This document shows, in pieces, positions 3,926 to 45,890 of a stretch of 64,000 nucleotides of DNA. How positions within the stretch are numbered: the stretch's first letter is position 1; the number at the start of each line of letters is the position of its first letter. This DNA comes from Lytechinus pictus (lineage: Eukaryota): positions 7,690,001-7,754,000 of the forward strand of contig NC_087245.1 in assembly GCF_037042905.1 (NCBI RefSeq). Direction: 5' to 3'. The notes beneath the pieces were generated by a model. It was given only the letters and a program-made list of their open reading frames with translations. It was not told where the DNA came from and did no database searches. Position numbers and translations under genes: made by a program.

Positions 3926-4246
3926 CTAGTCCCCTCCAAAATATATGGAAAATATATGAGATTAGGAAATTAATTGAAGAGCATATTTACCTTATATTTT
4001 GTCATGATGTTCAAGATAAAAATCAGAAAAAAAAGAAATACAACTACAGGGTACATCAGTAGTCATGTTGAAAAATTTATTTTTAAAGCCGTCAATGGTA
4101 TGGTATGTAAAACTATAAGGCTATAACTTGTTTTGAAGGATTTTTTCGGGCAAGTGAAATCTACATTCGGGCAAGTATTTTCCAACTATTTGAAAATTTA
4201 CTTGCCCGACTGGGCAAGTGCTTCAAAAAAGTTATGTAGCACCCTG

Positions 4247-7138
4247 GTGTAAGCAAGTAATAAATCTAACAATCTTGTTTTGAATAATTATAAACTTTTT
4301 TTGATCAACCTTTCCAAGACTGCAGTACCATGCTGCATTAGCATAATCAAATAAACACTGTATTAATGAAAAGCTTAAAATGCGTCTGGATTTCGTATTC
4401 ATGCAATTTTGGTACCGGTATAGAAATTTCAAGCGAGCATTAGCTTTTTTGACAATAGAGTCAACCATAGATGTACATGAGAGATCACTATTTAATATCA
4501 GGCCTAAATACTTCACGGAATTCTGTCTCTTAATTAATTGATTGTTATAGTATATATTGAAATCATCTGTATGCTTAGACATGCCCCGCGAACAAAACAA
4601 AATACTTTCAGTCTTACCAACAAGCTAAGCTTATTATCTGTCATCCATTTAACACAATTTGATAATTCTAACTTAAGCTAAGTTTTTCACCGATCAGCTT
4701 AGGACTTGTATCAGAATAGAGTAAAACACTGTCGTCTGCATATAAAAGTAATTTACTTTCATTAACACAAATACACATATCATTGATATAGCACATAAAA
4801 AGAATGGGACCTAATATGCTCCCCTGTGGAACTCCACACTTTATAGGCATAGAATATGAAAGTACATTTTGCATGGATACCACTTGACGGCGATTGGTCA
4901 AGTAAGACCTAAACCAATTCAAGAATGCTGAATTCAAACCCATCACTTCTAATTTCTTTAAGAGTATTTCATGATTAACCGTATCGAATGCTTTTTGTAA
5001 GTCAAGAAGAACCATCCCAACATAACGGCCTTCGGAAATTTAATTCCTGACAAAATCCAACAAGTGAATTAAACATGTTTCAGTAGAATAACCATTCCTA
5101 AAACCAGACTGAAATTCATAAATGATTTTGTATTCTTTAAAGTATTTCTCAATTTGAGAATACACGCATTTCTCCAAAATATTCGACACTATGCTTAACA
5201 CACTAATAGGTCTATAATTCCCAACATGAGTTTTGTCTTTTTTTGTGTGTAGTGGTGTGACTTTAGTGATTTTCATTTCATCAGGGAAGGTACAAGTTGA
5301 AATAGATAGGTTAATAATGTAAGTTAAAGGTATAAAGACGTTTTTTGCACCATCCTTTAAAAATCTAGCAGGAACCAGGTCAAGTCCGGTACTTTTTGAT
5401 ATTTTCAACTTGGATAATTCATCAAATACAAACTTTTCTGTGACAGGAGAAAAATTAAAACAGCCTCTTTGTATACCTTTATTGTCATATAGTTTTTTGT
5501 CTCACCTGCATAGCAGAGTGAGACTATAGGCGCCGCTTTTCCGACGGCGGCGGCGGCGGCGTCAACACCAAATCTTAACCGAAGGTTAAGTTTTTGAAAT
5601 GACAGCATAACTTAGAAAGTATATGGACCTAGTTCATGAAACTTGGCCATAAGGTTAATCAAGTATCACTGAACATCCTGTGCGCATTTTAGGTCACATG
5701 ACCAAGGTCAAAGGTCAATGAACTTTGGCCATAATGGGGGTATATGTTGAATTACCATCATTACTTTGAAAGTTTATGGATCAGACTCGTGAAACTTGGA
5801 CATAAGAGTAATCATGTATCACTGAACATCCTGTGCGAGTTTCAGGTCACATGATCAAGGTCAAAGGTCATGTAAGGTCAATGAACTTTGGCCACCTTGG
5901 GGGTATTTGTTGAATTACCATTGTATCTCTGTAAGTGTATTGGTCTAGTTCATAAAACATGGACATAAGAGTAACCAAGTATCACTGAACATCTTGTGCG
6001 AGTTATAGTAGTTTTCAAAGTCAGCACTGCTGCTATATTGAATCGTGTGATGCAGGTGAGACCGCCAGAGGCATTCCACTTGTTTAAATTAGGACTGTCG
6101 GCCCCAAACTCACTTCTGTCCGTAATGGGGAGCTCACAAGCTAATTCATCGGCCACTGTTGTGAAATAATTGTTAAATTCATTGGCTATCTTTAGATTAT
6201 CATGACATAGTTCCCCTTTAATATTAATAACACTTTTCTGAATATTTTTTTGTTTGTTTTTTAAACCTAACTCTTTGAGATTCTTCCATAATTTCCTAGA
6301 ATCATGTTTATTGTCTTCAATTTGATTTTGGAAAAATTCGTCTTTAGCTTTCCTCACTTTCCTTTGTACCACATTTCGCAATAGTTTAAATTTCCTTTCG
6401 AGTTCTAAATTACCAATATCCTTTTTCATTTTCCTGAAAGCTATATTTCGTTGTCTTATCAAACCAATAATTTCACTGTTCATCCATCTTTCTGTTCTTT
6501 GCTTAATTCTTACTTGTTTTAAAGGTGCACACTTATCAACTACTGACATGAAAATACTTTTGAAGTGTGACCAAGCAATATTTACTTCATTACATTAAAA
6601 TATAACAGACCAATTGATTTGAGATAAAACGAAATTAAGATCATTTTCACAATGGTTTTTCATACATCGAATGCTTATAGTTCTATGCTGCCCGAATACA
6701 GGCCTGATAAGTTTCCTTGAACAATACGTTAAAAAGTGATCACTTAAGCCAATTTCAAAAACACCACTTTGACAAATATTTTCTTCTTTACTACAAATTA
6801 CATGGTCTATTAATGAAGAAGTGGTACATGTAGGTGTAGTTCGGGTGGGTTTTGTTATAAGTTGGCTCAAACCATATAAATTCAAAATATTCTTGTATCT
6901 TTTGGTCAGTGCTGATCGTTGTAATAGACAAATATTCATGTCCCCTAAAAGTATAACCTCGTCATCTTTTGTTAATATGTCCAATATATCAGGGAGAGAA
7001 TCAATAAAGTGATTGTCTCTCGGGGTCTGTATACTACACCTAAAGTAATAGGCTTTGTATGTGGTAATAGAATGTCGATCCACAATGATTCAATACCATC
7101 AGGTGTAAGATCTTCTCTTAGATTAAATGCAATATAAT
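4247..7138 (-). pseudogene. Decayed non-LTR retrotransposon ORF2 (CR1/L2-type; AP endonuclease + RT), frameshifted and interrupted by an insertion at 5493-6084
   Basis: Collinear minus-strand fragments carry LGDMN, LIDH, SDH (endonuclease) and NYRPISVL, FQSGFR, DLQKAFDTVNH, GVPQGSILGP, LYADD, KYLG (RT). Confidence 0.93.
5493..6084 (+). mobile_element. Helentron-type non-autonomous element (HINE/DINE-1-like), family A
   Basis: Subterminal IR GTCTCACCTGCAT / ATGCAGGTGAGAC, 5' hairpin, (GGC)n microsatellite, internal tandem repeats and 3' CTTGTT end; inserted in a T-run with no TSD. Removing it rejoins the LINE sequence. Confidence 0.8.
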
Positions 7139-8243
7139 TTTTGTCTCGCCTGCGTAGCGGAGCGAGACATAGGTATCACTATTTCCGGTGTCGGCGTCGT
7201 CGTCGTCAACAATTGTGTTGTACACCAAATAACTTTCTAAAGCTTTGAGGTGGGATCACCAAATTCATACCAGAGGTCCATCTCCTGAAGGCACAGGTCA
7301 AGTTGGAATATGAGTCAAATTGGAATAAGGTCAAAGGTCAATGAACTTTCCATGACTGGCACTGTGCTGTGTTGTACACATAATAACTTTCTATATCTTC
7401 GAGGTGGGATCACCAAATTCATACCAGAGGTCCATCTCCTGAAGGCACAGGTCAAGTTCGAATATGAGTCAAATTGGAATAAGGTCAAAGGTCAATGAAC
7501 TTTCCATGACTGGCACTGTGCTGTGTTGTACACATAATAACTTTCTATATCTTCGAGGTGGGATCACCAAATTCATACCAGAGGTCCATCTCCTGAAGGC
7601 ACAGGTCAAGTTCGAATATGAGTCGAATTTGAATAAGGTCAAAGGTCAATGAACTTTCCATGACTGGCACTGTGCTGTGTTGTACACACAATAACTTTCT
7701 ATAGCTTCGAGGTGAGATCGCCAAATTCATAACAGACGTCTATCTCTTGAAGGTACAGGTCAAGTTCGAATATGAGTCGAATTTGAATAAGGTCAAAGGT
7801 ACCATTTATTAGGAAATTCAGAGAGGAATCCAAAACATGCATCAAATAATGTATTGGAGCGGTTTATAAGGTCATGACCTTTGACCTTTACTTTGACCTT
7901 GAGTTTGACCCCCGGACAAATAATTTTTTAACTTGATTTTCGTGTATGATAATTATTAGTATGATATTGACAAAATATGTTAAAATCAATGATGATATTT
8001 TATTTCGTCACCTTTTAAAACTATTCCAAAGATACCATGAAATTTCACTCTAGTCCTACATACTGATATTCATGTTAGTAAAGTGTTTACCAGTTACATG
8101 ATTTCTTCCAATCTTAAGTTACAGTATGTATGCACATGAAAAGAAATTAAGCTCATCAGTTCACAAATGAAACATTAAACATTTATGCTCATGAATAGGT
8201 ATCTGTTTACATGTAGGCATTTTGATGTTCAGCAATATATATC

Positions 8244-8292
<49 letters not shown>

Positions 8293-9650
8293 TCTTGTTA
8301 GTAAATAGGCATATACTCAACAATTTGATGATAAAAGTAAACACTTTACTAACAAGAATATATATATATTGCTGAACATCAAAATGCCTAAACAGATACC
8401 TATTCATGAGCATAAATGTTTAAATTCTATATGTTTATTTCTATAGCTTCGAGGTGGGATCACCAAATTCATACCAGAGGTCCATCTCCTGAAGGCACAG
8501 GTCAAGTTCGAATATGAGTCAAATTGGAATAAGGTCAAAGGTCAATGAACTTTCCATGACTGGCACTGTGCTGTGTTGTACACATAATAACTTTCTATAT
8601 CTTCGAGGTGAGATCACCAAATTCATACCAGAGGTCCATCTCCTGAAGGCACAGGTCAAGTTCGAATATGAGTCGAATTTGAATAAGGTCAAAGGTCAAT
8701 GAACTTTCCATGACTGGCACTGTGCTGTGTTGTACACATACTAACTTTCTATATCTTAGAGGTGGGATCACCAAATTCATACCAGAGGTCCATCTCCTGA
8801 AGGCGCAGGTCAAGTTTGAATATGAGTCGAATTTGAATAAGGCCAAAGGTCAATGAACTTTCCATGACTGGCACTGTGCTGTGTTGTACACACAATAACT
8901 TTCTATAGCTTCGAGGTGAGATCGCCAAATTCATAACAGACGTCCATCTCTTGAAGGTACAGGTCAAGTTCGAATATGAGTCGAAATTGAATAAGGTCAA
9001 AGGTCAATGAACTTTCCATGACTGGCACTGTGCTGTGTTGTACACACAATAACTTTCTATAGCTTCGAGGTGAGATCGCCAAATTCATAACAGAGGTCCA
9101 TCTCTTGAATGTGCAGGCCAAGTTCAAATGTGTGCCGAATTTGAATAAGGTCAAAGGTCAATGAACTTTCCATGACTGGCACTGCTGTGCTGTACACACA
9201 ATAACTTTCTATATCTTCGAGTTAGGATAGCCAAATTCATACAAGAGGTCCATCTTTTGAAGGTGCAGGTCAAGTTCAAATGTGAGTTGAATTTGATTAA
9301 GGTCAAAGGTCAATGAACTTTCCATGACTGGCACTGTGCTTTGTTGTACACATAATAACTTTTTATATCTTCGAGGTAGGATTGCCAAATTCAAACAAGA
9401 GGTCCATCTCTTGAAGGTGCAGGTCAAGTTCGAATGTGAGTTGAATTTGATTAAGGTCAAAGGTCAATGAACTTTTCATGACTGGCACTGCTGTGTTGTA
9501 CACACAATAACTTTCTATAGCTTCGAGGGTGGATCGCCAAACTCGTAACAGAGGTCCATCTAAGTCATATAGCATACATGTAGTTTTGACATGCAGTCTC
9601 TTCATGACTGCAATATGCAGGCGAGACAACGCTTGGCGTTTGCCTTGTTT
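7139..9650 (+). mobile_element. Helentron-type non-autonomous element, family B, with a 154-bp tandem array (interrupted at ~7800-8440)
   Basis: Subterminal IR GTCTCGCCTGC / GCAGGCGAGAC, (GTC)n, 154-bp units (7310 vs 7464), 3' hairpin AACGC-TTG-GCGTT then CTTGTT. Confidence 0.82.
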
Positions 9651-10930: not shown

Positions 10931-11091
10931 TATTTATCTTCCTTTTTGACTCCAGCGCGTGTTATCGCGTTGTCAAAACCCATTGACGGAGCCAAAAAGG
11001 AGGATAAAACCTAGAATCTTATCTTTTTTGCTCCGTCTATGGGTTTTGGCCACGCGATAACACGCGCTGGAGTAAAAAAGGAAGATGAATA
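10931..11091. repeat. Long imperfect palindrome (~70-bp arms), followed by a ~157-bp tandem duplication at ~11110-11440
   Basis: ACTCCAGCGCGTGTTATCGCGT...GACGGAGC is mirrored by GCTCCGTC...ACGCGATAACACGCGCTGGAGT. Confidence 0.85.
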
Positions 11092-11706
11092 ATAAGCTTG
11101 TTGAAATTGTATTGGATGGATAACTAACTGTCTAAAAGTGGCAGAGTGGTTTTGAAGAGAAGGGAAAAGAGAAGTTGATGGATATACAGGTTGATTACCG
11201 TGCGTAATTTCGTCGGAAAAGTGGAGTAAAAAAGAACGCTAAAGATATAGACAGTTTGAATTGATTTATTTAGTGGATATCCTACTGTCTAAAAGTGGCA
11301 GAGTGGTTTTGAAGAGAAGGAAAAAGAGGGGTTGATGGAATATACAGGTTAATTACCGTGCGTAATTTCGTTGGAAAAGTAGAGTAAAAAAGAACGATAA
11401 ATATATAGATAGTTGATACTGTGACTTATTTGTGGATAGTAAAAAGTTGAAGAGTGAAGAGGAGACAAACGATGGGTTACTTAATAAATGACAGTGAAAT
11501 TTCTTTGAAAACAGTGAAGTAAAAAAATGTAAACTTAATTATCTCTGACTAAATGAAATGTAAGATTGATATATGACAGTTATTTCATAATTATATATTT
11601 TTTTCCTTTGTAACATATAAGAGATTGTTAGTAGGTTAACAAAATTTGTGGCACTGACTAAATAAATTGGTCGATCATTTTATTCAGATTTCGTCAGTTA
11701 AGTCAT

Positions 11707-11877
11707 GTGTGTGTATTTGAGTTTTGTCAGACGTGTATCAATCAGATATGATTATTTACGTCTGGGACCGACCTTTAACGTCACCATCCGATAGACGTGA
11801 CCAGGGCTCGAACCTCTGCATCAATTTGTAACTTCCCCACATAGCTTGGATTACAGGCGCACGCCACAACGCCCAGT
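11707..11877 (-). mobile_element. SINE-like retroposon with a 7SL RNA-derived head, B box, Deu/Nin-like body and (CA)n tail
   Basis: Minus strand reads ACTGGGCGTTGTGGCGTGCGCCTGTAATCCAAGCTA...GGTTCGAGCCC...CGGATGGTGACGTTAAAGGTCGGTCCC...ACACACAC; imperfect flanking direct repeat GTCAGT(TA/C)AGTCATG. Confidence 0.7.
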
Positions 11878-12031
11878 TTAGTCAGTCAGTCATGAGAGGC
11901 CTTTATAGATTCCCACTTGGCTGACAAAATAAGAAAGAACTTTGAATTGGGAAGATCATCAATCTGATTGTCGACCACTGACTAAATGAATTTAGGACGA
12001 TTTTAATTCTATCAACTTTCAAAAGACAGAT

Positions 12032-13669
12032 GGGCAATTCCATAGGTTGGTGGACATGAGCTCAAAAATTCAAATTCAATATTTTCTTGAATTTTAAATA
12101 CTTTAAGTCCTTCATACATGATAGTTTCAGGAACAAAAAATAAAAAGTTTATTTTCATATGTATACTTTGGAAAAAAATGGTCAAAAGTTGTGTCTTCCA
12201 TTCTGTACCAAAATACAAGAAAAATAGTGAAAATTGAAATATGCCTTATTACCATTTTGTTATTGCAACATCATACCACTTTATATATTTCTGAAGTTTA
12301 GAAGAGTCAAATTACTTAATATACACAACAGCTTTTCAAGTAAATTTGTAGTACTCATTTAAAAATAAATATTGCAACCTGCTCAGGTGATGTAACGTGA
12401 GTAACCCCAAAAACTGACTTTGTTTTCTGAGCGAAAAATTCTTCACAGTTAATTGGTGGGATTTCAAATTCTCTTCCTTCAAACAATCTTTAACACGGTG
12501 ATGACTATCAAAATCATTGAAAAATACAATTTTTTATAAAAATGATGAAGAAAAACTGTAACGTGAGTAACTGTGTAACATGAGTAACCATCATGTAATG
12601 TGAGTAACTAGGGAAAATTATGCAGTTAGGTAACATTTTCTGTGGGATATCAAGTTTGAAGTCTCATGGTGAGTTGTGAAGTTATTTTTGATTAATTAAA
12701 AGCAAAAAGAGGGTACACCTCTTTGATATTCATCAAAATATCAGTGGTCATACATGTACAATCACACAAAAAATTGAATACTAGTAAAAGTATTCACAAT
12801 GCGAGAGTGTAATAGTTAGGCTTAAAGTTTCGATTAACCAAACTTTACATAGTGTTCGAACAATACATTGAATGCCCTTACCTGTAACCCTATCTAGGCC
12901 GGGGTATTTTGGGAGTTGATATGGCCGGGGGGGGGGGGGGGGGGGCCTCCCAGGCCCCCCTTGAGATCTCGGCCATTGGTCGCGCGATCGCACCAAAAAT
13001 TTGCACACAGGTTGTCTTGGACATAATCTACAAAACTGTACAGTAATTTATTTCATGCAAATTGGTATTAAGCGATTATGCTAATTTATGCAAAATTAGT
13101 AAGCAAAATCATACTTTTCCCTCTTACTCCCTAAACAAAGCTCCAATTGTTCCAATTTTTGGTATAAAAACTCTTGTTGGTGTTCCTAGCAATGAATTTT
13201 CCACACATTATTGAATTTTTAGTGACATTTTTGCTGTTAACCATACATGGACAAAATGTAACGTGAGTAACTGTAACGTGAGTAACCACTTTATCTGCAC
13301 CCCTAGTAAAAACCATGTGTTCTTTATTTTTTTTATCATATACAAAGTTTGTCTCCCTAATATACTTCTTTGAAATGGATATAATCAACTTTCATAAAAA
13401 CCTTGTATGAGGACACTTTTCACTTATGTCGATTTTTCATTTTATGCATACATGTCCAAATCATGTAACGTGAGTAACCGACACATTTCAAAGATTTGCC
13501 AGGAGCATAATAAAATTTCCCAAGTTTTGTTTTTATACAAAGGATAGTCAGACTGTGTACTTTGTTGTGATAAGTAGATGTTTAGTTCCTATCAATAATA
13601 ATGGAGTTACAGCACTAAGTATGAGTCAAGGTGTCTCCAAATGTAACGTGAGTAACCGTGGAATAGCCC
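12032..13669. mobile_element. Non-autonomous DNA transposon with 4-bp TSD (Sola-like), containing a GC-rich nested fragment at ~12885-13190
   Basis: TIR GGGCAATTCCA / TGGAATAGCCC; AGAT on both flanks; repeated internal motif GTAACGTGAGTAAC. The superfamily call rests only on TSD length and termini. Confidence 0.72.
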
Positions 13670-17805: not shown

Positions 17806-18243
17806 GTAAAAATCTTTGTTTATTGTTGCTTTAACATGTAACCGTTTACTCTGATGGATAGGGACAGTGCCATAGAGGGGAGTGATCCTAACCTTGTATC
17901 CGTAAAGAGATTCATCTGATTGGTAAAACTCAAAATGTTCTATATAATCCCACCCTTGATTGTTTAAATATTGAATAAATCAACAGAAAGATGAAGAGAG
18001 ACAATGAGAGAAGATCATGTAGTTCTGTGGTACCTCTAATATTTTTTTATTAAATTTAAAAAAATAAACACCCCCCCCCCCCCCCTCATCAAAATAAGTT
18101 TTAATCTGTTTTTGTTTTTGAAAAATACCATAGTGGACTATACCACTATGGTATGTGTCAGTCATAACAAAAAACCTGTGACTTTTTTTAGTTTGCCTTT
18201 GGCAGACAGCCACAGAAATCCTCTCTTTTTCTTAAATTGACAG

Positions 18244-18376
18244 CCGGCTGATGACATGCAAACAAATGGACCAACAGACTTGTACTCTGCCATCTCACAT
18301 GCAGACACGAGAGCAAATGAACCAGAGAAGATCCGTTTATGGAGAGAAGAACAGAAAAATATACTTGCAAAGAAAG
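18244..18376 (+). CDS. Clc: Clathrin light chain, coding exon 3
   Basis: CAG acceptor, G|GTATAG donor; PADDMQTNGPTDLYSAISHADTRANEPEKIRLWREEQKNILAKK matches the NGPTD..Y.AI...EPE.IR.WREEQ motif. Confidence 0.95.
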
Positions 18377-18814
18377 GTATAGTGTTTATCCCATACATAC
18401 ATGTAAATAACATAATGGAACCGTGCTAAATATGTGTGTACAGTTTTCAAGGGACTGCTTGCATTTAATAAGGGTCTAGGGGGTTCACTTGTGGCTAAAT
18501 CATTTTTCAGGGAGATAAAATCATGTTAAATACAGTTAGCAATGAATTATTCATTCCCCTTGGAAATTTTTTTCATTTTTTCTTCAACATGAAATCCGAA
18601 TTGATTTTACTGGTATATCAACTGAGTGCACATAGCCGTCATCTTTGAAATAGTGCTCCTTCTGGTTTCACTCTATTTGTATGAAAATTGTGAGTTGGAG
18701 ATGTTCACAATATTTCACAAGCCACCTTACTACGATTCACCCTTAATTTTCCAAAAAAATACATAGAACTGCAATTGTCCAAGGGTTATGAATAATTTTG
18801 TTGTTGAACATGTA

Positions 18815-26601: not shown

Positions 26602-29600
26602 TTATAAAACCTTTAAATATTCCCATTTTTTATAGTGTCGCGTTAACGTATTACGCTCTAATGCAATTTTCTTTTCTTCTTCTTTGCTAATAAGTAACTT
26701 TTCCTTTATCTCTTCAGGAGTTGGTGGTTTACCCTTCCCTCTCCCTTGATATATTAAATATTTGATTAGCAAAATGATATGATTAAGTAATTGTATGTTT
26801 TCGGTTGTTTCCTCGAGACCAATATGGATTTCCATCCAGCTTAGTTTTTTTAGAATTGGAAGGCCAAACAAATTACTACTCCGTACCCACAAATCTCCTA
26901 CTTTTTCACATTCAAAAAATAAATGCTTATATGTTTCTTCGTATTTTCTACAGAAGGAACATTTATCACTTGCTATAAAATGAAACCTGTATAAGTGATG
27001 ATTCAGAAAGATGATATTGTATAACATTTTAAATTGAAATTCTCTCAATTTGTTATCCAACGTACTAAATCTAGGACGATAAAATGTTTTCTCAATTTCT
27101 TTATTTGACAGATTATATAATAATGCTAAGTTATGAAAACTGACTGGTTGTTCAGCAACTTGTTTTATACACCCTCTATATAGATTTTTGGAAGTAACCG
27201 AGTCGAATTGAATTTTTTTCTCATAAAAGACAAATTCAATATTCAAGCCGTCCACTGAAGTATTCCTTCTTAATCTGTCTTTCCATTCTCTGGGGGTATG
27301 TGCAAATATTTCTTGAATAACTGATACTTCCTCCTCGTCCAATCCCATACATCTGAAATAATTATCCGGCTTAAGTGCCCCCTTAACATCTGTAATGTGA
27401 TGAAATTTAAAAATATTTTTGAGGAACAGATTTTCATGAAAAAACGTTTTTCCTTTCTTCAAAATACACTTATTATTAAAGAAAATTTCATTTCTTTTAC
27501 TATTTGTATCTTTTTTAGTAAAAATATTCATATCAGACCAAATACATAACATTTCTCGGTAATATTTTGGTAATTTAACATCGACCATATCAGGGGAAAA
27601 ATTGCAGTAAAATATTAAAAGACCACCAAATGTTCTCAGGAGAAATTTAAAATATCTTTTCCATTTTGCTCTCTGGTCACCAGTAACTAATCTTTTAATC
27701 CACATCACTCTTTGTACCATTATAAATAGTTTGAAATTGAGCATTTTTAGCCCACCTTGTCGGTAATCCAGATATAAAGTATTTCTTTTTATTTTGTCTT
27801 TCCCCCGCCATAAAAAGTCAAAACATGTATCATCAATTTCTTTGAAAACCCAGTCTGGAACTGAAGATAGGGAGCTCACATAAGTCAATTTGGAAAACGC
27901 ATACGTTTTAAGCAAATGAATTTTTCCTATCAAAGTGAGATCTCGTTGTTTCCACCAATTTAATAACTTTTTGATTATGCTCAAAATTTCTTTGAAATTC
28001 ATTTCTTCAGCGACATCAGGATTGAGTGAAAAGTAAATACCCAGTATTTTCACAATATCAACTCTTTTACCGAATGGAAAGCTGTTCCCCGGTGGAACAG
28101 GAGGCCCTAGAGGCAAAATAAAAGTTTTATTTTTATTAATTTTCAGTCCAGATATTTTCTTGAACTTCTCAAGGATTATGTATAATCTATCTATAGAGTC
28201 TAAATCTTGCACAAATAGTGTCATGTCATCAGCATAAAGAACCTGCTTAATTTCTGTATCGCCAAAGCAAATACCCCTTACTGAATTATCGTTTCGAATA
28301 GAGTGAGTTAAACACTCTATACACAATATAAAAAGATATGGGGACAGGGGGTCCCCCTGCCTTAGCCCCCGCTCAACATCGAAATAGCCAGTTGATCTCC
28401 CTCCATTGAAAACGCAGCATAGTGTGTTAGTGTAAATTACTTTGACCCAATCCCTAAACATCGTTCCAAAACCGAATGAACAAAGTGCCTTTTGAAGAAA
28501 AGCGTGTGAAATTGAATCGAAAGCCTTTTCAAAATCGATTGCTAATAAATAACCCGATTTATTAAAATGTGAGGTATGAAATATCATTTCATTAATTAAT
28601 CTTACTGCTTCACCAATATTTCTGTCATTTAAATACCCTACCTGGTCAACTGAAATAATGTTACTCAGAATCGCTTTTATTCTTTTAGAAAGTATCTTAG
28701 TGAGAATTTTATAATCTACATTGAGAAGTGAAATGGGTCTGTAATTGCTAATGACTGTAGGGTCTTTATCCCCCTTGTGTATTAGTGTAATTACTGCTTG
28801 CCTCTGAGAGGGCGATAATTCTTTATGAATCAAACTATCATGAAGCCCGTTAATAACTAAATCACCTACAACATACCAAAATGTAATGTAAAACTCGACG
28901 CTCAGTCCATCATTCCCCGGAGATTTATTAAGTTGCATTTCTTTTAAGATTTCAATACAATCACCTTGGTTTATTTTTCCTTCACAGTGATTACTCTGAT
29001 TTTTTGTTAGTTTGGGTAAGCTATTGGGAAAAAACGTATTATCGTCGCATAATCCTGCCTCAGATTTAGCGTATAATGATGAATAAAACTTTCGGATTTC
29101 ATTTAAAATATTAATTTCATCACTAATTATATTTTCATTCACCTTAAGTTTTTTAATTACACATTTTTTCCCATTAGAATCTGTCAATTGTTTAAAATAT
29201 GCGGTTTCCCTTTCCCCACTTTCAAACCACGGCGCTCGAGATCTGATTTTTATACCTTCATTAACATAAGTATAAATTGCTTTTAATTCATTTCTTTTCC
29301 TGGTTAAAATGTCAATTGAATCCTTATTTTTATTACTTGGTCTTTGTTGCAGTTCTTCTTCTAATTTTACAATTTCCTTTTCCAACTTTGTAATCTTTTC
29401 TCTTCTTTCTTTTGCCTTTTTCTTTGAGTACTTCCTAGTAAAACTTCGGATTTCCATTTTAACATAATCCCATAAAATTCTGCTGTCCATAATCTCTATT
29501 GATAACATCTGTTTCAAACGAATAATTTCCTCCTTCATACTTTTAACATATTCTTCGTCCTTACATAAACTGTTATTAAATTTCCAATAACCAGTCTTAA

Positions 29601-30420
29601 TCGTTGGTTTGACCATATGATTAAAATTAATATTGAGTTCTATTGCTGAGTGATCAGGTGATAATGAAGGTATTATTTTACAATTCAACACTTTCTCTTC
29701 TAAAATATCTGAAACCACCCAGTAATCCAATCGACTTTGCATATACGGATTTCCTTGATGATAGGTATATTGTTTCTTGGAATCATTTTTAACACGCCAT
29801 ATATCTAAGGCCTTATAATCCGTAAGAAAATTTTCGAACATTGAACTAAGTTTAGATTGCTTCTTGTTTACGATTTTTCCATCATAATCTAAATAAATAT
29901 CCCTAACCATATTGAAGTCTCCTCCTATAATAAAAGGTTTATTTTGGAACTCCTTTCTTCCTAAAATCTTAATAATAGAATCCAAAAACTCAAGTTGCTC
30001 GTGCACTTTACTACTAACAGGGAAATAAACATTTCCCAATATTACTTCCTGATTTTGCAAAGATCCAATAATAAAAATGTATCTACCTCCTGTATCGATG
30101 ATTGTATGTTTTATTGAGATATCAAACCCTTTATCTACTAAAATCATAACGCCTTTACCGTGGTTTGTACCGTGACTAAAAATACAAAAGCCATCCCACA
30201 TGGAACTCCAATTACTAACAATATCTTGAGTGCTAAAAGTTTCCTGGAGAAAAATAATATGCCCTTTTTTATCCTTACACCATTTAAATATATTTTGCCT
30301 CTTATGACGTTCTCGAATTCCCTTAACATTTAAAGATATGAAGTTGCAGATTAAAGAATTAAACACAGGGGTATGGACAAGATAATAAATCGTGGGATGA
30401 GAAGTGGAAGAGCGCCGCAC
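26602..30420 (-). CDS. L1/Tx1 ORF2: AP endonuclease - reverse transcriptase - C-terminal CCHC zinc knuckle (uninterrupted frame)
   Basis: SLNVKG, FLQET, GGDFN, SRLDY, PDH (endonuclease); KSPGNDG, NYRPISLLNVDYK, DFEKAFDS, RQGDPLSP, YADD (RT); CSFC...ETYKHLFFEC. Start codon uncertain (GTG). Confidence 0.95.
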   Translation of the reverse strand: MRRSSTSHPTIYYLVHTPVFNSLICNFISLNVKGIRERHKRQNIFKWCKDKKGHIIFLQETFSTQDIVSNWSSMWDGFCIFSHGTNHGKGVMILVDKGFDISIKHTIIDTGGRYIFIIGSLQNQEVILGNVYFPVSSKVHEQLEFLDSIIKILGRKEFQNKPFIIGGDFNMVRDIYLDYDGKIVNKKQSKLSSMFENFLTDYKALDIWRVKNDSKKQYTYHQGNPYMQSRLDYWVVSDILEEKVLNCKIIPSLSPDHSAIELNINFNHMVKPTIKTGYWKFNNSLCKDEEYVKSMKEEIIRLKQMLSIEIMDSRILWDYVKMEIRSFTRKYSKKKAKERREKITKLEKEIVKLEEELQQRPSNKNKDSIDILTRKRNELKAIYTYVNEGIKIRSRAPWFESGERETAYFKQLTDSNGKKCVIKKLKVNENIISDEINILNEIRKFYSSLYAKSEAGLCDDNTFFPNSLPKLTKNQSNHCEGKINQGDCIEILKEMQLNKSPGNDGLSVEFYITFWYVVGDLVINGLHDSLIHKELSPSQRQAVITLIHKGDKDPTVISNYRPISLLNVDYKILTKILSKRIKAILSNIISVDQVGYLNDRNIGEAVRLINEMIFHTSHFNKSGYLLAIDFEKAFDSISHAFLQKALCSFGFGTMFRDWVKVIYTNTLCCVFNGGRSTGYFDVERGLRQGDPLSPYLFILCIECLTHSIRNDNSVRGICFGDTEIKQVLYADDMTLFVQDLDSIDRLYIILEKFKKISGLKINKNKTFILPLGPPVPPGNSFPFGKRVDIVKILGIYFSLNPDVAEEMNFKEILSIIKKLLNWWKQRDLTLIGKIHLLKTYAFSKLTYVSSLSSVPDWVFKEIDDTCFDFLWRGKDKIKRNTLYLDYRQGGLKMLNFKLFIMVQRVMWIKRLVTGDQRAKWKRYFKFLLRTFGGLLIFYCNFSPDMVDVKLPKYYREMLCIWSDMNIFTKKDTNSKRNEIFFNNKCILKKGKTFFHENLFLKNIFKFHHITDVKGALKPDNYFRCMGLDEEEVSVIQEIFAHTPREWKDRLRRNTSVDGLNIEFVFYEKKIQFDSVTSKNLYRGCIKQVAEQPVSFHNLALLYNLSNKEIEKTFYRPRFSTLDNKLREFQFKMLYNIIFLNHHLYRFHFIASDKCSFCRKYEETYKHLFFECEKVGDLWVRSSNLFGLPILKKLSWMEIHIGLEETTENIQLLNHIILLIKYLIYQGRGKGKPPTPEEIKEKLLISKEEEKKIALERNTLTRHYKKWEYLKVL

Positions 30421-31932
30421 CCTGTCCGCCCGGCCTACATGTAAATCTGATCATGATCAAAATGCCACTGCCAACTGACCCTGAAAGGAAAAAGGAAACG
30501 AAAAACAAAGTGCACATAAAACAAACATCAACAAGCAAGACTATCAAGGGAGATCTTCCTATGAAGGAAGTGTCTAAAACGAAAACTCTCTTACATGTCT
30601 TAGACATCTTCATGATGTCTCGCCAACCCCTCTCCCTATAACTTGAGATTTATTTTGAAGGTAAGTCAATAATGAGCAAAGGAAAATAAAGAGAAAAAAA
30701 AAACCTGTGGACTACAACATTATCCTGAGGAAATTGCCTCTCGACTATATTCATGCCCTAAATACCGGCGACCCACATACTAAGATATGGATTCAAAGTT
30801 AAATGTTTACCCAATTGATTTGCAACTTCTATATCTACATTCTTTTGAAAACCTTCTCCTTTAAGACCGAAAAGGATAATACAAAAGGACCACTATTGGA
30901 ACCTTAAACCTTTTCGAAATTTGCATCTAAGATACATTCATTCTAATTCAGTTTGATTTTAAAAGAGTATATGAGATCCCACCAACGATTCAATTAAGAT
31001 TTTCAAACCATGATCAGTAAGGTTATGTAATCATGGTTACTTATTATCTAATCAAATATACCACTGAATCTTTAAGCAGACATTGCATTCACCTAAAAGG
31101 TGTAGGAAGAGAAAAGGAATCTTCGTATACTTATTTCGAATTAAATTAAACGCATGCTTGACGAGATTCTCCCCCACCTCATTTGCATTATACAGACTTA
31201 TCATTTGCATTATGTTTTAACAATCTATTGAATACACATGAGGCGTATTATAACACACCCTCTTTACAAGAATTATTATGTTTTGTCTCTGAAATATTTG
31301 CTTTTCATTCCTTTTCATTCTAATGTCTATTAAAATACCAGTGGATTCACTGATTGCCATTACAATCGAGTTAATGTGGCCACTCGACCATATATCATTA
31401 TTTCTTATAATACACTGTCGGATTATATTGAACATGCTGAATCATTTGGAATCTTTCATCTTAAACATTTACAAGGAATAAAGGAAATTGCAGTCTAAAT
31501 GACATTAACAAGAATAAACAATCGTGTAAAAGAACATACCAGAGGACTATTGTTTACTGTACGACGCCTTTAAAGTATTAGCGTCTTATCAACATTCATT
31601 CCAGACGTCCAGTTCAAAATTAGATTCTAAAGTTCTGAAGAATGTCTCTTTAAGTAAGCGCAAGTTGAATTTTTCAAATCAACAGAATGGAATTTACACA
31701 TTACACCAATTGCCACTCTAACCATTGGATCTTTCTTTAAAATATGCATGTCAATCGCACAACATATCTTGCAGAAAAGGGAAAGAGGGGGAGAGAGAAG
31801 AAAGAAAGGAGTCATGCTGTAGCAATTGACATTAACAATTATATACTCCAGCGATTCCTCCTTCCATTCCTCTCCTTACCCTATCAAAATATTTTCTACC
31901 AATTATACGTTGATTACATAGAATAATCAAAC

Positions 31933-34849: not shown

Positions 34850-37349
34850 TTACAGAATTACGATTCTTTGACGTTTTCTCCTCCTACTGCTCCGGGCTAC
34901 TGCTCCTGCGAGATATCCCTCATGTTGCGTTGCTTCAGCGCCGATGCTTTCCATTGCTTCGATGCCGTTTTCGGTCAGACCCTCGTCACTCCTTGCCCAT
35001 ATCTTCCTCGCTGTAAACGATGCACTGTCACCTGCTTTTCCTCGTTGTATTCCTCCATTCCGCTCCATCCTAACTCCTGCCTGATCCCGATCCCGATGTA
35101 TCTGCAGGGAGGCGTTATTCATTCCTGCTCCACTCTGTTTCCCCCATATTCCGATGAGCTCCTCTTGGTCCTCCCGTGGGATCCATTTTCCAGCGACGAA
35201 GAGTTTAGTCGGCTCCGCCCGTGAGAAATAAGCAAGCTTCCCTGCGTTCCGTGCCGCTTTCAAGGCCGGTGCCTGCGCTTTCCTTTCTTCTCGAATTCGT
35301 TTGGGCAGATCTTGTGCAATGTACATCTTACTCCCCTTCAACAATTTAGCATTCTTGTCAATTGTCAACTTGTCTGCAAATCTAAGGAACCGTGCTTTGA
35401 TGGGGCGTGGTCTGTGTATAGCTTGCACCCGATGAACCCGTTGATATTCAATTTGTTTAACAAAATCTTGTCTCAACTTCAATTTCTCGACGAGAAATCT
35501 ATTCAAAGTTTCCTTCGTATTCTCATCACCCTCTCCACTTTCTGGGATTCCCAAAAAGACGAGGTTCTCTCGCGATATGTAGGCGGAAAGTCTATCAATT
35601 TCAGCTTCAAGTTTTTTCCCCTTCATATCACTTTCCTCTTGTACTTTCCTCAGTTTCGTTTTCAAATCATCCATTTCTTTTGCTTGAAAATTTAGCGATG
35701 CAACCAATTCCTCCATTCTATGTTCAAGTCTTGTATTCTGTACAGTAATTTGGCGTTCCAATGATGACAACCGTTCATTAATTTTCCCAAAATAGTCATC
35801 TAGATATGACTTCATTTCTGATGACACGCCCAAGTTGGCATCAGGGCTGGACGGGGTAGACGGGGTCAACCGCGTAGCCAGGATTTCATTTTGGAGGGGG
35901 CGGTAAATGCACGCGAAGCGTGCCATCACTTTCAGAGCGCGCGAAGCGCGCTCCCTAGGGGGTGGGTGCCGGGAGGGGGAGTTTCCCCCTCCCGCGCGAA
36001 GCTTTCAGTGTTTCATTAATTAAAATGAAAAGGAGCCATCTCTCTTGCCTCTAGTACCTATATCAGCCCCAATTCAGTTGACTATATTGCGATTTTGAAC
36101 CTTGTTTTCAAAAGTGATTGTGAACGCACAAAACAATTGAGGAAATTAAATGGAGGAAATTAACCCCGCGCGAAGCGCGGAAGTTTAAGTGTTTTATCAA
36201 TTTTTTTGCAAAGAAAAGGGTCCCGAGAATAGGTATTCTCTAAGTTATATTGAATACTTCCTTTGGAAAGATCAGATTTGGTTACCAACAATTTAGCGAC
36301 AGTGCATATCTTTAACTCGCAAAACAGAGGAGAAGGATATATGCCGGGAGGAAGATATTCCTCCCCCCGCAGAGCAATGAAATTTCAAAGGGCGGACGTT
36401 TCGTCAAATGCAGATATCTCTAATACCCCCATCTAATTCAATTGTTTTTCCTCTAAGATTATTGAACTTCATTACAAGGAAAATAATGCGCAAAGAGTTG
36501 AAACTTCTGTGATTTATTGAAATTATATAAAACAGGATGATGTATAATTATCCTGATGCGCTTCATTTTTAATGATAAAGACATTTAAGTGTCATTCAAA
36601 ATTTCAAACTTAGGACGCAAAACAGGACAGGAGATTAATGTGTAGGGAAATGACATGAAGTTTAGTAGAATTTGAAAAAAAATATTGTACTCTTTTATTT
36701 AATACAGCACGAATATTCTATACCTTCCTCTTTTAAGATTAGGAACCCGTTTGCCCCAAATTATGGTTATTTATAGTAATGAGCTGAAAAGCGGGATAAG
36801 TTGCCTATATGGAGGTGACGGCAGAAATTGATATAAAGATTTTACCCGCCCGGAGCCGACCCGACCAGAAGTTGCGCGACCAATTAAAAAAAATAATAAC
36901 TTCATATACTTCGGACCATCCTTACTCTAATTTCATGCCCTAATGTATATATCTGAACTTTAACTGGCAAGAAACACATATAGCTGAGGTAGAAAAACAG
37001 GGTTTAGAGAAGTGGTGAGGGAAACAAAGGGGAATTGCAATATCATTTAACCGCGCGCAGCGCGGAAGCAAAATCCTTGTATATAAATTTAGAGCAAGAG
37101 TGAAGGAGTTTCTTTTTAAGAAGAAAAAAAAGAATAAAAAAGAAAAACCCACAAAGCTACCTTTCTTCCCTTTCCTTCCTTCGCTTTTCCTTTTCTCTTC
37201 TCTTTTTTTCCCTTCTTTTTTTCTTTTTGGGGACGTTTTGGGGGGGGCGACCGCCCCCACCGCCCCCCCCTGGCTACGCGCCTGGACGGGGTAGCCGACG
37301 GCCTAGGCCGCTTAGCTCCTGATTGTCTCGTTGATGCGTGTTTGCTCAT
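34850..37349 (-). pseudogene. L1/Tx1 ORF1 (coiled coil + L1 ORF1-type RRM/CTD), interrupted by the MITE at 35867-37284
   Basis: SRENLVFLGIPE, YQRVHRV, PRPIKARF, IAQDLP motifs. Removing the MITE and one TSD gives a 1074-nt frame from ATG 37349 (MSKHASTRQSGAKRPRPSATPSTPSSPDA...), 357 aa. Confidence 0.88.
35867..37284. mobile_element. hAT-type non-autonomous element, copy 1
   Basis: TIR CAACCGCGTAGCCAGG / CCTGGCTACGCGCCTG; perfect 8-bp TSD GACGGGGT. Confidence 0.92.
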
Positions 37350-41790: not shown

Positions 41791-44029
41791 TTTTCTGAGG
41801 TGGCCGGAGATCAAGAATTAGATGAGTATGAGCAAGTTCGGCGTTTCTTTGCAATGAGACCTTTACCATATCCAGTGAAAACATTGTCCATAATTATTCC
41901 AAACTAGCTATTTTCTTTAATAGCCCGTTGCGTTAATCAGCTGAAATGAGTTAGTGGTGAGTAGGGATTTCCCGCTAAATTCAAGAGGAAATCACCATAG
42001 TTTATTGTAAATTATTATCCAAACAATCAAAATTAGAGTCCGATATTGTCCCAATCAAAATAGGTGATTGTATAGTGAGCCATATAATATTCAACATGGC
42101 GCATGAGACGATGCGCCACCCCTATAAAATGTATTCTAAATATGAAAAGGACAACATAAATTGTGTATACAATTTTTTTTCTTCTTCTTCTTATTCTTAT
42201 TTTTCTCCTTCTTCTTGGATATGCTTAAAAATCCAACAAGTATAACACTAAAAATTTCATCAAAAAGAAAAAGTTAATTTAAATGTAAAGATAAAAATCC
42301 AACAAGTATAAACTTTGAAAATTTCATCAAAATCGGATACAAAATAAGATTTTTTAAAGTTTTGCTTAATTTCGCAAACATAAGATATGCACACCCTGGT
42401 ACGTCGATATACAAATAAGGGGCGCCAGGGACTGATAACATTACCAACTCACTATTTCTTTTGTATTTCATTATGTGAAATATTTAATTTGGCCTCATTG
42501 TCATGAGAAATGAGGTTTTATTCCTTCCTGAGCACGTGGTATTACCATTATTTTAACATTTTGGCGATTCAGTCAAGTTGCTCATTTAATTCAAACAAAA
42601 AATAAAAAAATAGTGATTGGAGGACATCATCAGCCCTCTCATTTGCTTATCTTTGTGCATAACTGTTCAGTTACGTGAAAGTCAGGGCATTCAACTGGAA
42701 AGGGGGGAAGGGAGAGAAAGACAGAAAGAAATAAATTAAAAAAAGAAAGAAAGAAAAAGAAGGAAGGAAGGAAAGAAAGAAAGACTGAGAATGAAGAGAG
42801 AAAGAAAGAAAGAAAAAAAAACAGAAGGAAAGAAAGAAAAAAGAAAGAAAGAAAGAAATAAAGAAAGAAAGGGAAATGAAATCAGAAGAAAAGGAGGAAA
42901 GAGGGGGAAAAACGAAAAGAAAGGAAATGGAAAAGGAAAAAGAAAAGAAAGTATAGGCCTATAATGAGAAGAAAGATAAAACGGATAAAAAAGATAGCAC
43001 GGCTTGGCTGCCGATCGAGAATTAAAACTAAAGAACGGGGAAGAATGAATGGGATGGCACATGTGCATGAAGTCTATAACCTTGCCCAGTTCCCCTGAAG
43101 AAGCATTTCTATGTCCCTATAGTCAAGACATGCCCCTTTAATGACATAATCAGAATTTTATTTTAGAAGGCTCAATTTCTTTTCGATCGCTTCGCTGGCT
43201 CGCTGCGTTTTAGATTTTTTTTTCACATTTGTTATGTTGTGCCCCTCAAAATGTTTGGTTTATTAATAACATTACGCCATTGCGTTGAAGTAATGTGTTG
43301 TGTAAAACCTATAGGCCTATGGCTGACTCTCGAGAGGATCCAGGGGCTCCGCACTCGGACCCCTCCAACACAGCATTGGCGTACGTGCAAATGAAAGTGG
43401 TGGGCCCCAAAAACTTCTTAAAAAAAATGTAAGATGTTTTATTTTCTACCACGAAGTAAAATTAACGAAAAGGTGAACAAACTTCTCGCTCACTAGGGAT
43501 TTTATCAATTATTATCATTAAGTATTTTATTACTTTTTTTACTCATGACGCTAGTGCCGCCTAGAGCTTCGCGCTAACGCTCGCGTACAATGATTGAAAA
43601 TCCTGTTCACATCACCATAATTATGATATAATTTATGACTGGGAAATTTTTGGGCCCCTCCCACTGCCTATGGCCCTGAATACGCCCCTGGCCCTGTAAC
43701 TCTTTTGTGAAAAATGAGCAAATGTCATAACTTTCTTATTTTACTTCCAATTTTGATGAAATTTTCAGCGTTATGCTTCTCTTTTGATTAAAAACCAACA
43801 TTTTTCTGGGGTGGACTTGATCTTTAAGAAAGGTATAGTAGATTGTCATAGTGCTGCAAATTAAGGTAGTCAAGACAGCCCGATCCAACGCGATAGCCCT
43901 TGTAAAAAAAAACCATGGTTTGATGTTAAGGTAAAACCATGGTTTTGCATTGGATCCATCGTGCAGTAATTTCATAGTTTAACCATAGTAAGATATGGTT
44001 TAATTATGGTGAAATCATGGTGCACTAGT

Positions 44030-45890
44030 GTTTAACCATAGTTAAACTATAGCTTTAGCATGGGTAAACCATGGTAACCATGGTTAAATGGTGTTAAATT
44101 GGAACGCACTTACCATGACATTACTATGGCATAACCATGGTCACAACTGTGTTTTTACCATATTTTAACAATGGTTAAGAAAGTATAAAACCATGGTAAA
44201 GAGAAGGTGAAACCATGGTTAGAAAAAGGTGAAACCATTGTTTTACAGCTGCCAAACCACATAATTACAACCCGAATCACGGTAAAACCATAATCAATTG
44301 TATGGTAGACCCACCTTTTGACCATAGTGCAATATTGTATGATGATGGTTAAACCATGTCAAAGTACTGTCTAGCCATGGTTTAACCATGGTTTACCACG
44401 GTTAAACTATAGGTTTAGCATGGGTAAACCATGGTAACCATGGTTAAAAGGTGTTAAATTGGAACGCACTTACCATGTCATTACTATGGCATAACCATGG
44501 TCACAATTATGTTTTTACCATCGTTTAACAATGGTTAAGAAAGTATAAAACCATGGTAAAGAGAAGGTGAAACCATGGTTAGAAAAAGGTGAAACCATTG
44601 TTTTACAGCTGCCAAACCACATAATTACAACCCGAATCACGGTAAAACCATAATCAATTGTATGGTAGACCCACCTTTTGACCATAGTGCAATATTGTAT
44701 GATGATGGTTAAACCATGTCAAAGTACTGTCTAGCCATGGTTTAACCATGGTTTACCACGGTTAAACTATAGGTTTAGCATGGGTAAACCATGGTAACCA
44801 TGGTTAAAAGGTGTTAAATTGGAACGCACTTACCATGTCATTACTATGGCATAACCATGGTCACAATTATGTTTTTACCATCGTTTAACAATGGTTAAGA
44901 AAGTATAAAACCATGGTAAAGAGAAGGTGAAACCATGGTTAGAAAAAGGTGAAACCATTGTTTTACAGCTGCCAAACCACATAATTACAACCCGAATCAC
45001 GGTAAAACCATAATCAATTGTATGGTAGACCCACCTTTTGACCATAGTGCAATATTGTATGATGATGGTTAAACCATGTCAAAGTACTGTCTAGCCATGG
45101 TTTAACCATGGTTTACCACGGTTAAACTATAGGTTTAGCATGGGTAAACCATGGTAACCATGGTTAAAAGGTGTTAAATTGGAACGCACTTACCATGACA
45201 TTACTATGGCATAACCATGGTCACAATTATGTTTTTACCATAGTTTAACCATGGTTAAGAAAGTATAAAACCATGGTAAAGAGAAGGTGAAACCATGGTT
45301 AGAAAAAGGTGAAACCATTGTTTTACAGCTGCCAAACCACATAATTACAACCCAAATCACGGTAAAACCATAATCAATTGTATGGTAAACCCACCTTTTA
45401 ACCATAGTGCAATATTGTATGATGATGGTTGAACCATGTCAAAGTACTGTCTAGCCATGGTTTAACTATGGTGTACCACGGTTAAACTATAGGTTTAGCA
45501 TGGGTAAACCATGGTAACCATGGTTAAAAGGTGTTAAATTGGAACGCACTTACCATGGCATAACCATGGTCACAACTGTGTTTTTACCGTACCATAACCA
45601 CGGTTAAGAAAAGGTGAAACTATGGTTAAGAAAGTATAAAACCATGGTAAAGGGTAGGTAAAACCATGGTAAAGCGAAGGTGAAACCATGGTTAGAAAAC
45701 GGTGAAAACATTGTTTTACAGCAGCCAAACCACATAATTACAACCCAAATCACGGTAAAACCATGATCAATCATATGGTAAAACCACCTTTTAACCATTA
45801 GTGCAATATTGTATGATGATGGTTAAACCATGTCAAAGTACTGTCTAACCATGGTTTAACCATTGTATACCACGGTTTAACTATAATGTG
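44030..45890. repeat. Left subterminal tandem array, 360-bp period (~5 units), rich in AACCATGGTT
   Basis: Matching lines at 44041, 44401, 44761, 45121 and 45481. Confidence 0.95.

Follow-up and report, generated by a model that had tools for sequence, protein, structure and literature searches.

The locus at 11707–11877 of the window (the whole 64,000-nt stretch of Lytechinus pictus DNA analysed) raises the question of whether a SINE headed by 7SL RNA is present in an invertebrate genome and, if so, how much of it comes from 7SL RNA. The initial annotation had described it as an Alu-like SINE with a Deu/Nin-like body. The reading preferred here, with a joint probability of about 85% for both origin and SINE status, is that nt 1–47 of the element were copied from the host's own 7SL RNA and that the element is a SINE. 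It lies on the minus strand, reading from 11877 to 11707, antisense between two clathrin light chain coding exons (344–532 and within 18241–18426, both on the plus strand), and so is probably intronic. The first of these exons is closest to Strongylocentrotus purpuratus (the best of 12 hits, 85% identity), followed by Diadema (65%), in agreement with the invertebrate host proposed at the outset.

The window copy is 171 nt long and belongs to a short subfamily with one B box; with the long subfamilies included, the size of the SINE is 171–178 nt plus the tail. All parts are oriented in the minus direction. The 7SL-derived head (element nt 1–47, 11831–11877) comprises the 5′ part of the SRP Alu domain with helices 2–4, the U-turn and the loop-loop pairs, supported by RF00017, by identity to host 7SL and by pair counts. 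A putative A box within it (nt 5–14, 11864–11873) is placed by reference to box A of 7SL, which lies at nt 6–15 in the available text of PMC7245038. A linker (nt 48–63, 11815–11830) is followed by a tRNA-type Pol III B box, recognised in the initial annotation and seen directly at nt 64–74 (11804–11814), which is doubled by a 7-nt tandem repeat in the long subfamilies. Next come the Inv-like 5′ part of the Deu/Nin domain (nt 77–113, 11765–11801) and a 3′ stem-loop with stems of 7 bp and 6 bp (11728–11764). The stem-loop is found in both the MFE and the centroid structures and is a candidate signal for the reverse transcriptase of a partner LINE; the fold of the whole body is no better than that of shuffles (z = −1.0). 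The element ends in an A-rich stretch with the expected (CA)n tail (11707–11727), of which 4 CA units occupy 11707–11714. The imperfect flanking duplication noted earlier is seen directly as 7 nt at 11888–11894 on the 5′ side, with 10 extra bases between it and the element, and at 11701–11707 on the 3′ side, with a one-base overlap with the CA tail.

The origin of the head was assessed with covariance models and with the 7SL genes of the host. In the Rfam search of window positions 11000–12600, Metazoa_SRP (RF00017) ranked first among the 10 matches with E ≤ 10, scoring 29.5 bits (E = 2e-5) on 11820–11877; the score stays under the gathering threshold of 70 since the match is confined to the 5′ end. 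The ten matches included no tRNA or 5S family, and ARAGORN at default settings found 0 tRNA genes in the window; a better score as tRNA or 5S, named beforehand as grounds for dropping the 7SL reading, was thus not obtained. Among 25 scored SRP RNA candidates, 7 are full host genes with 272–283 bits, and the other 18 are heads of the 7SL-headed SINE. The comparison with the species' own 7SL genes, which had been advised, gave a clear match: the element is identical to the seven genes at 29–30 of the first 30 and 40–41 of the first 47 nt. Over 60 nt the identity is 45–46/60, the real signal stopping at nt 47. At positions 3/45, the head has the same base pair as the paralog on contig C12 (L037) and the other six genes have a different one; an L037-like gene is therefore the likely donor.

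Past nt 47, no likeness to 7SL was found in ten shuffle tests, all with gene L033, against 7SL positions 36–100, 47–100, 47–299 and 250–299 (p = 0.16–0.92), so the S domain and the 3′ Alu strand are absent. Within this range, element nt 48–165 against 7SL 47–299 or 250–299 gave p = 0.2–0.92, and nt 48–76 taken as decayed 7SL gave p = 0.16–0.77. The linker matched 7SL 47–100 and the downstream flank of the 7SL genes no better than shuffles did; for nt 48–76 against that flank p was 0.05–0.85, and other B-box contexts among the 41 compared scored higher. The tRNA genes in this donor comparison numbered 16, all Lys(TTT), and hence do not amount to a survey of tRNA donors. With 29.5 bits and with the S domain and the 7SL 3′ end both missing, the element is not an SRP RNA gene (~300 nt, with an S domain and a T-run terminator), as the initial annotation had held. 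Only the 5′ Alu domain (nt 1–47) is 7SL-derived, so the description as Alu-like stands for the head and goes too far for the remainder.

The element belongs to a large family. Searching the 812-Mb genome at the DNA level gave 40 other matches listed among the best-scored of 1,797 candidates, 39 of them at 98–99% identity and one at 93%. Exact head motifs occur 740 times genome-wide (7 of them in 7SL genes), and 1,423 tail motifs and 1,882 Deu motifs were counted in the whole genome within 3 mismatches, with 0 in the reversed controls. Capture-recapture on contig C1 scales to 1,425–2,045 copies. The family numbers about 1,400–2,000 copies, on many contigs and with distinct flanks; the suggested copy-number check thus disposed of the possibility of a single-copy sequence without duplication-flanked siblings. 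In a set of 76 full-length copies with distinct 5′ flanks, which is biased to the best hits, identity to the consensus has a median of 99.4% and falls no lower than 92%. The copies share the 5′ start and the (CA)n end, the latter with 3–13 CA units in 74/76 copies. Look-ups of the element's sequence gave no match in other genomes.

The marks of retrotransposition were sought in the flanks, in the truncation of copies and in empty sites. Flanking duplications reached at least 6 nt in 22/76 copies (2.3% in shuffled pairs) and at least 7 nt in 14/76 (0.8% in shuffled pairs); in most copies the duplication is therefore short or absent. For this count 76 of 95 copies were kept, those with identical 3′ flanks or with short flanks being dropped; a stricter count gave duplications of at least 5 nt in 26/92 copies against 6.2%, a figure that includes 3 tandem-dimer artefacts. 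Twenty sites chosen for having no exact head motif, two pairs of which are segmental duplicates, consisted of 14 with a mutated head and 6 truncated at the 5′ end, 5 of the latter with the tail intact. Each of the three tandem 7SL genes on contig C10 has a SINE copy about 35 nt upstream, inside the upstream promoter region (L031:1290-1467, L035:1294-1467 and L036:1315-1467; another copy is at L031:877-1047). In front of the C1 paralogs L033 and L034, both flanks of the C10 copy are present and adjoin each other (p ≤ 0.004); this is an empty paralogous site. Short target duplications, 5′-truncated copies and the empty site together identify retrotransposition, as generally expected of SINEs. 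An extra base in helix 4 is present in about 75/76 copies (1/76 without it, 2 not anchorable) and in 0/7 host genes; with the one common junction, it shows that the copies descend from master SINEs. Separate insertions that differ in their junctions lie within ~10 nt of one spot in other repeats (L019/L028/L029/L063; L010/L020/L047 and L077; L012/L078; L008/L070), which suggests a target-site preference.

The evidence above bears on several other accounts of the element. Chimeric retrocopies such as those of U6 and L1, and plain 7SL retrocopies such as P7SL, are known (PMC7245038, available part), and many separate events of this kind could in principle be taken for a self-propagating family; one fixed junction, head changes shared among copies and absent from 7/7 genes, and the existence of subfamilies already contradict this, the S domain and poly(A) are both lacking, and the account is very unlikely. 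An ordinary tRNA-derived Deu/Nin SINE with a chance resemblance to 7SL would fit the tRNA-like B box and the weak “tRNA-Pro” that ARAGORN reports at 85% of its threshold over about nt 5–87 of many copies. This is extremely improbable, being already contradicted by the 30/30 identity to a host 7SL gene as well as by the Rfam result (SRP at E = 2e-5, no tRNA at E ≤ 10) and the lack of an ARAGORN call at default. Contamination with a mammalian Alu, or its horizontal transfer, would be suggested by a weak head hit to mir-1268 (E = 0.022), which we take to be an Alu-derived family. The head follows host 7SL down to the paralog-specific pair, in contradiction to a mammalian source; the copies are spread over many large contigs and have distinct flanks, poly(A) and the Alu 3′ part are absent, and sequencing runs of two organisms from six studies hold 75–100% of the element's sampled words (14/24 rows), which leaves the probability of such a source practically negligible. 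An origin of the head in the host's own 7SL RNA, within a SINE family, is accordingly retained below.

The SRP Alu-domain features that had been read from the window copy are largely retained across the family. Helix-3 pairs are kept in 75–76/76 full-length copies, helix-2 pairs 2-46 and 3-45 in 72/76, and the helix-4 pairs in 75, 71, 76 and 55 of 76. The loop-loop pairs 14-34 and 15-33 are kept in 75/76 and 73/76 copies, and the U-turn is kept as well, so that together with helix 3 these elements are found in 73–76/76 copies. The 13-37 pair, presumably numbered as in human SRP structures, is Watson-Crick in 8/76 copies, wobble in 49/76 and lost by deletion in about 15; the 31-39 pair is broken in 16/76. 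The helix-4 loop drifts in young subfamilies. Substitution rates in the head are not below those of the body in the 76 copies, which indicates no extra constraint on the head. When folded alone, the head recovers helix 3; in the MFE structure of the whole consensus, computed with a program that cannot model the pseudoknot, the head does not take up the SRP fold. A search for the SRP9 gene gave 0/3 candidates, a blank that is uninformative in an intron-rich genome.

The promoter of the family appears to be composite. An internal B-box motif is absent in 7/7 host 7SL genes, and a bare 7SL copy would be without a B box for this reason. The motif was found 19–43 nt downstream of 6/7 genes (background 0.06 per kb), namely L031, L032, L033, L034, L035 and L036, at about locus position 1815–1845 on the gene's strand; none occurs within 200 nt downstream of L037. 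This downstream B box may be an extragenic promoter element; the literature search made returned nothing on such a box at animal 7SL genes. The need for a foreign B box may be the reason why the successful element is a fusion. No T4 run is present inside the element in 74/76 copies, and the first one lies at a median of 61 nt downstream. Six runs on record as RNA hold only 0.25–0.42 of the element's sampled words and were rejected as evidence of expression or habitat.

The Deu/Nin-like body claimed in the initial annotation holds for its 5′ part of ~37 nt, which probably corresponds to the Inv/Nin 5′ part, and not for the remainder of Deu. When nt 77–113 were compared by hand with the Deu rows of AmnSINE1 and EbuSINE1 in the supplement of PMC7245038, in the part available, about 28/37 columns at the Deu start agreed with AmnSINE1 (majority allele). 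The block is also like the bivalve MD rows. The Deu domain occupies ~140 nt in the alignment, of which the element has the first ~37 nt only, ending ~50 nt further on. No likeness to the 66-bp Meta domain of MetaSINEs was seen by eye against the Meta consensus in the same supplement. PMC5804259 (available text) describes Inv as the 5′ portion of Nin, which in turn lies within Deu, and lists echinoderms for each of them. No tRNA-headed parent was found among the 20 discordant sites, none of which had another head type, and a search with the canonical Deu motif, allowing 1 mismatch, returned 0 matches.

The proposed match of the 3′ end to a partner LINE was not obtained. The SINE tail was not matched in the flanks of the SINE copies examined or, by eye, in the two window LINE 3′ ends, nor in the 3′ regions of 16 of the 150 RT-bearing loci listed of 12,239 candidates (best E = 1.6); about 5 of these 16 regions stopped short of the true 3′ end. 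With its short duplications and microsatellite tail, the family is more in keeping with a partner of the CR1/L2 or I/Nimb type than with L1. Bivalve Deu-SINEs have been linked to CR1-Zenon (PMC11481361). The window itself carries LINE frames, typed by eye: an uninterrupted 1,282-codon Tx1/L1-like ORF2 frame with endonuclease and RT at 26602–30450, whose 3′ end is not shared with the SINE tail, a CR1/L2-type ORF2 broken into several frames at 4232–7089 and a 384-codon ORF1-like frame at 34850–36004, all on the minus strand.

A single origin of this young, non-autonomous retroposon in the sea-urchin lineage is proposed, in which the first 47 nt of host 7SL RNA would have been fused with a body that had a B box and the 5′ part of Deu/Nin. 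This fusion may have arisen by template switching in reverse transcription or by the landing of a 5′-truncated SINE in a 7SL gene copy. The A box of the head and the B box of the body would then direct Pol III transcription of each copy, with Pol III presumably reading past the tail as far as the first flanking T-run. The 3′ hairpin and the (CA)n terminus would serve as template for a host APE-type LINE in target-primed reverse transcription. The head, if it still folds as the 5′ Alu domain, would bind SRP9/14 and park the RNA on ribosomes making the LINE protein, as Alu does; the chances of this last step are judged about even.

The same origin is compatible with a head that serves as a promoter only, providing the A box and the start site, with no part for SRP9/14 and with the 47-nt boundary marking a template-switch point where a stable RNA domain ends. 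The drift of the helix-4 loop in successful young subfamilies and the lack of extra constraint on the head speak for this, as does the likewise replacement of the tRNA promoter by 5S heads in some Deu-SINEs (PMC4758252, available text). Against it stand the U-turn, helix 3 and the two loop-loop pairs, kept in nearly all copies as given above, and the length of the retained segment, which equals the functional minimum in the accessible part of PMC11760393. The kept pairs and the loop drift decide neither way because the family is too young, and a promoter-only head is given somewhat less than an even chance. The origin of the head in host 7SL RNA is common to both.

In order to place the 7SL-headed SINE among known elements, published definitions were applied. 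It is shorter than 1 kb, interspersed and present in more than the 100 copies required as a minimum by SINEBase (PMC3531059, available text), and its 45–46/60 identity to 7SL exceeds the 60% over at least 60 nt to tRNA, 5S or 7SL given in the same source. That source also names transcription by Pol III, for which the element carries a putative A box and a B box. Its 5′ head is taken from 7SL, unlike that of a full-length retrocopy, which is the mark of SINE1 (PMC7245038, available text). The element is SINE1 by head origin, but is outside the architecture common to Alu, B1, Urop and Ebu1-1, where both 7SL ends remain after a central deletion and the Alu domain is complete. The poly(A) tail and L1 partner of Alu, B1 and Urop do not apply to it either, 74/76 copies having (CA)n.

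The accessible text of PMC13023118 (2026) describes SINEs derived from 7SL as extremely rare and counts three known origins, each of them in vertebrates. Their hosts are primates, rodents and hagfishes according to PMC10886601 (2024, available part); PMC13023118 adds Urop of shrew-moles, notes a shared central deletion and, in its available text, states that no 7SL-derived SINE had been reported beyond these taxa. The list of known cases given initially, Alu/B1 and a hagfish family, lacked Urop. Alu, FLAM, B1 and Tu of Euarchontoglires and Urop likewise have the 7SL 5′ Alu domain as the head, with the A box in the same place; they differ in the central deletion of ~183 nt, the retained 7SL 3′ end, poly(A) and the use of L1, none of which applies to the sea-urchin SINE (PMC13023118, same part).

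The hagfish element SINE1-1_EBu (Ebu1-1) from Eptatretus burgeri was called the first evident SINE1 outside Euarchontoglires (PMC7245038, 2020, available text). It is similar in that an independent 7SL head has been placed on a body from other elements, and it is young, has a similar number of copies (2,363), ends in a microsatellite tail and is mobilised without a poly(A) tail. However, Ebu1-1 consists of 7SL nt 1–96 plus the 3′ end, that is, a full Alu domain with the 7SL B box, on an RTE-derived body with ~17-bp duplications, whereas the sea-urchin SINE keeps nt 1–47 only, took its B box from elsewhere, continues into a Deu/Nin piece and a (CA)n tail, shows short target duplications or none, and is found in an invertebrate. 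The Deu/Nin/Inv-SINEs, including AmnSINE1, EbuSINE1 and the sea-urchin SINE2-3_SP, have the same ~37 nt of the Deu/Nin 5′ part straight after the B box (PMC5804259, PMC4758252 and PMC7245038, in their available parts), and one Deu-SINE subgroup gained a 5S head in a comparable swap (PMC4758252). They differ in having tRNA or 5S heads and the remainder of the ~140-nt Deu alignment, which is missing here; the sequence of SINE2-3_SP lay outside the comparison.

The engineered minimal Alu domains SA46 and AY46 contain the same 7SL segment, about nt 2–47. In the available text of PMC11760393, this 46-nt 5′ Alu domain binds SRP9/14 and supports 86% (7SL form) or 73% (AluY form) of Alu retrotransposition in HeLa cells. 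These constructs have no B box; driven by an external promoter, they make a single jump that relies on L1 and poly(A). The sea-urchin SINE, in contrast, brings a B box of its own and has spread to many copies in a genome. The family retains exactly the segment found sufficient by deletion mapping in human cells and drops the remainder.

No invertebrate 7SL-derived SINE was listed in full-text searches of the open literature, including the available parts of PMC4824008, PMC5786205 and PMC13034634, and within these open papers the concern that the family was already catalogued was not borne out; the Repbase, Dfam and SINEBase files were outside this scope. The family is probably not yet described. 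It is proposed tentatively, at rather less than even odds, that it represents the first invertebrate 7SL-derived SINE, a fourth independent origin and the first on a bare 47-nt 5′ Alu domain, in which a portable module targeting SRP9/14 and ribosomes was grafted onto a Deu/Nin SINE with a non-L1 partner and no poly(A). If so, the Alu trick would work as a detachable part outside vertebrates, and the ~183-nt deletion shared by known SINE1s would reflect the need for a B box and not for the 3′ stem. The reason for the success of Alu, and whether its SRP9/14-binding fold is a selected trait, is a standing question with few independent cases; natural head-loop subfamilies and the sea urchin as a tractable embryo system make it directly testable by binding, expression and jumping.

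Several further observations were made in the course of the analysis. A diverged fragment at L071:250-330 resembles the head and linker, lacks the Deu part and agrees with a long-subfamily copy at 61/79 positions. It is possibly an old copy of the SINE; a search with it returned only itself and one unrelated match. It is followed by a tRNA-like head at about 385–470. Head-to-tail dimers of two subfamily copies were found at L039-L044 and L051-L055, with the same flanks on contigs C2, C4, C7 and C18, and a monomer with the dimer's 5′ flank is present on C5; the SINE dimer is probably carried inside a larger repeat. A cluster at G000:C4:9700711-9735957 (L110-L119) contains some 40 tandem tRNA genes, and those fetched are all Lys(TTT). 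In the window, a 160-bp palindrome is located 600 bp from the SINE (10931–11091), and tandem arrays with periods of ~154 and 360 bp occupy 7214–9561 and 44029–45885.
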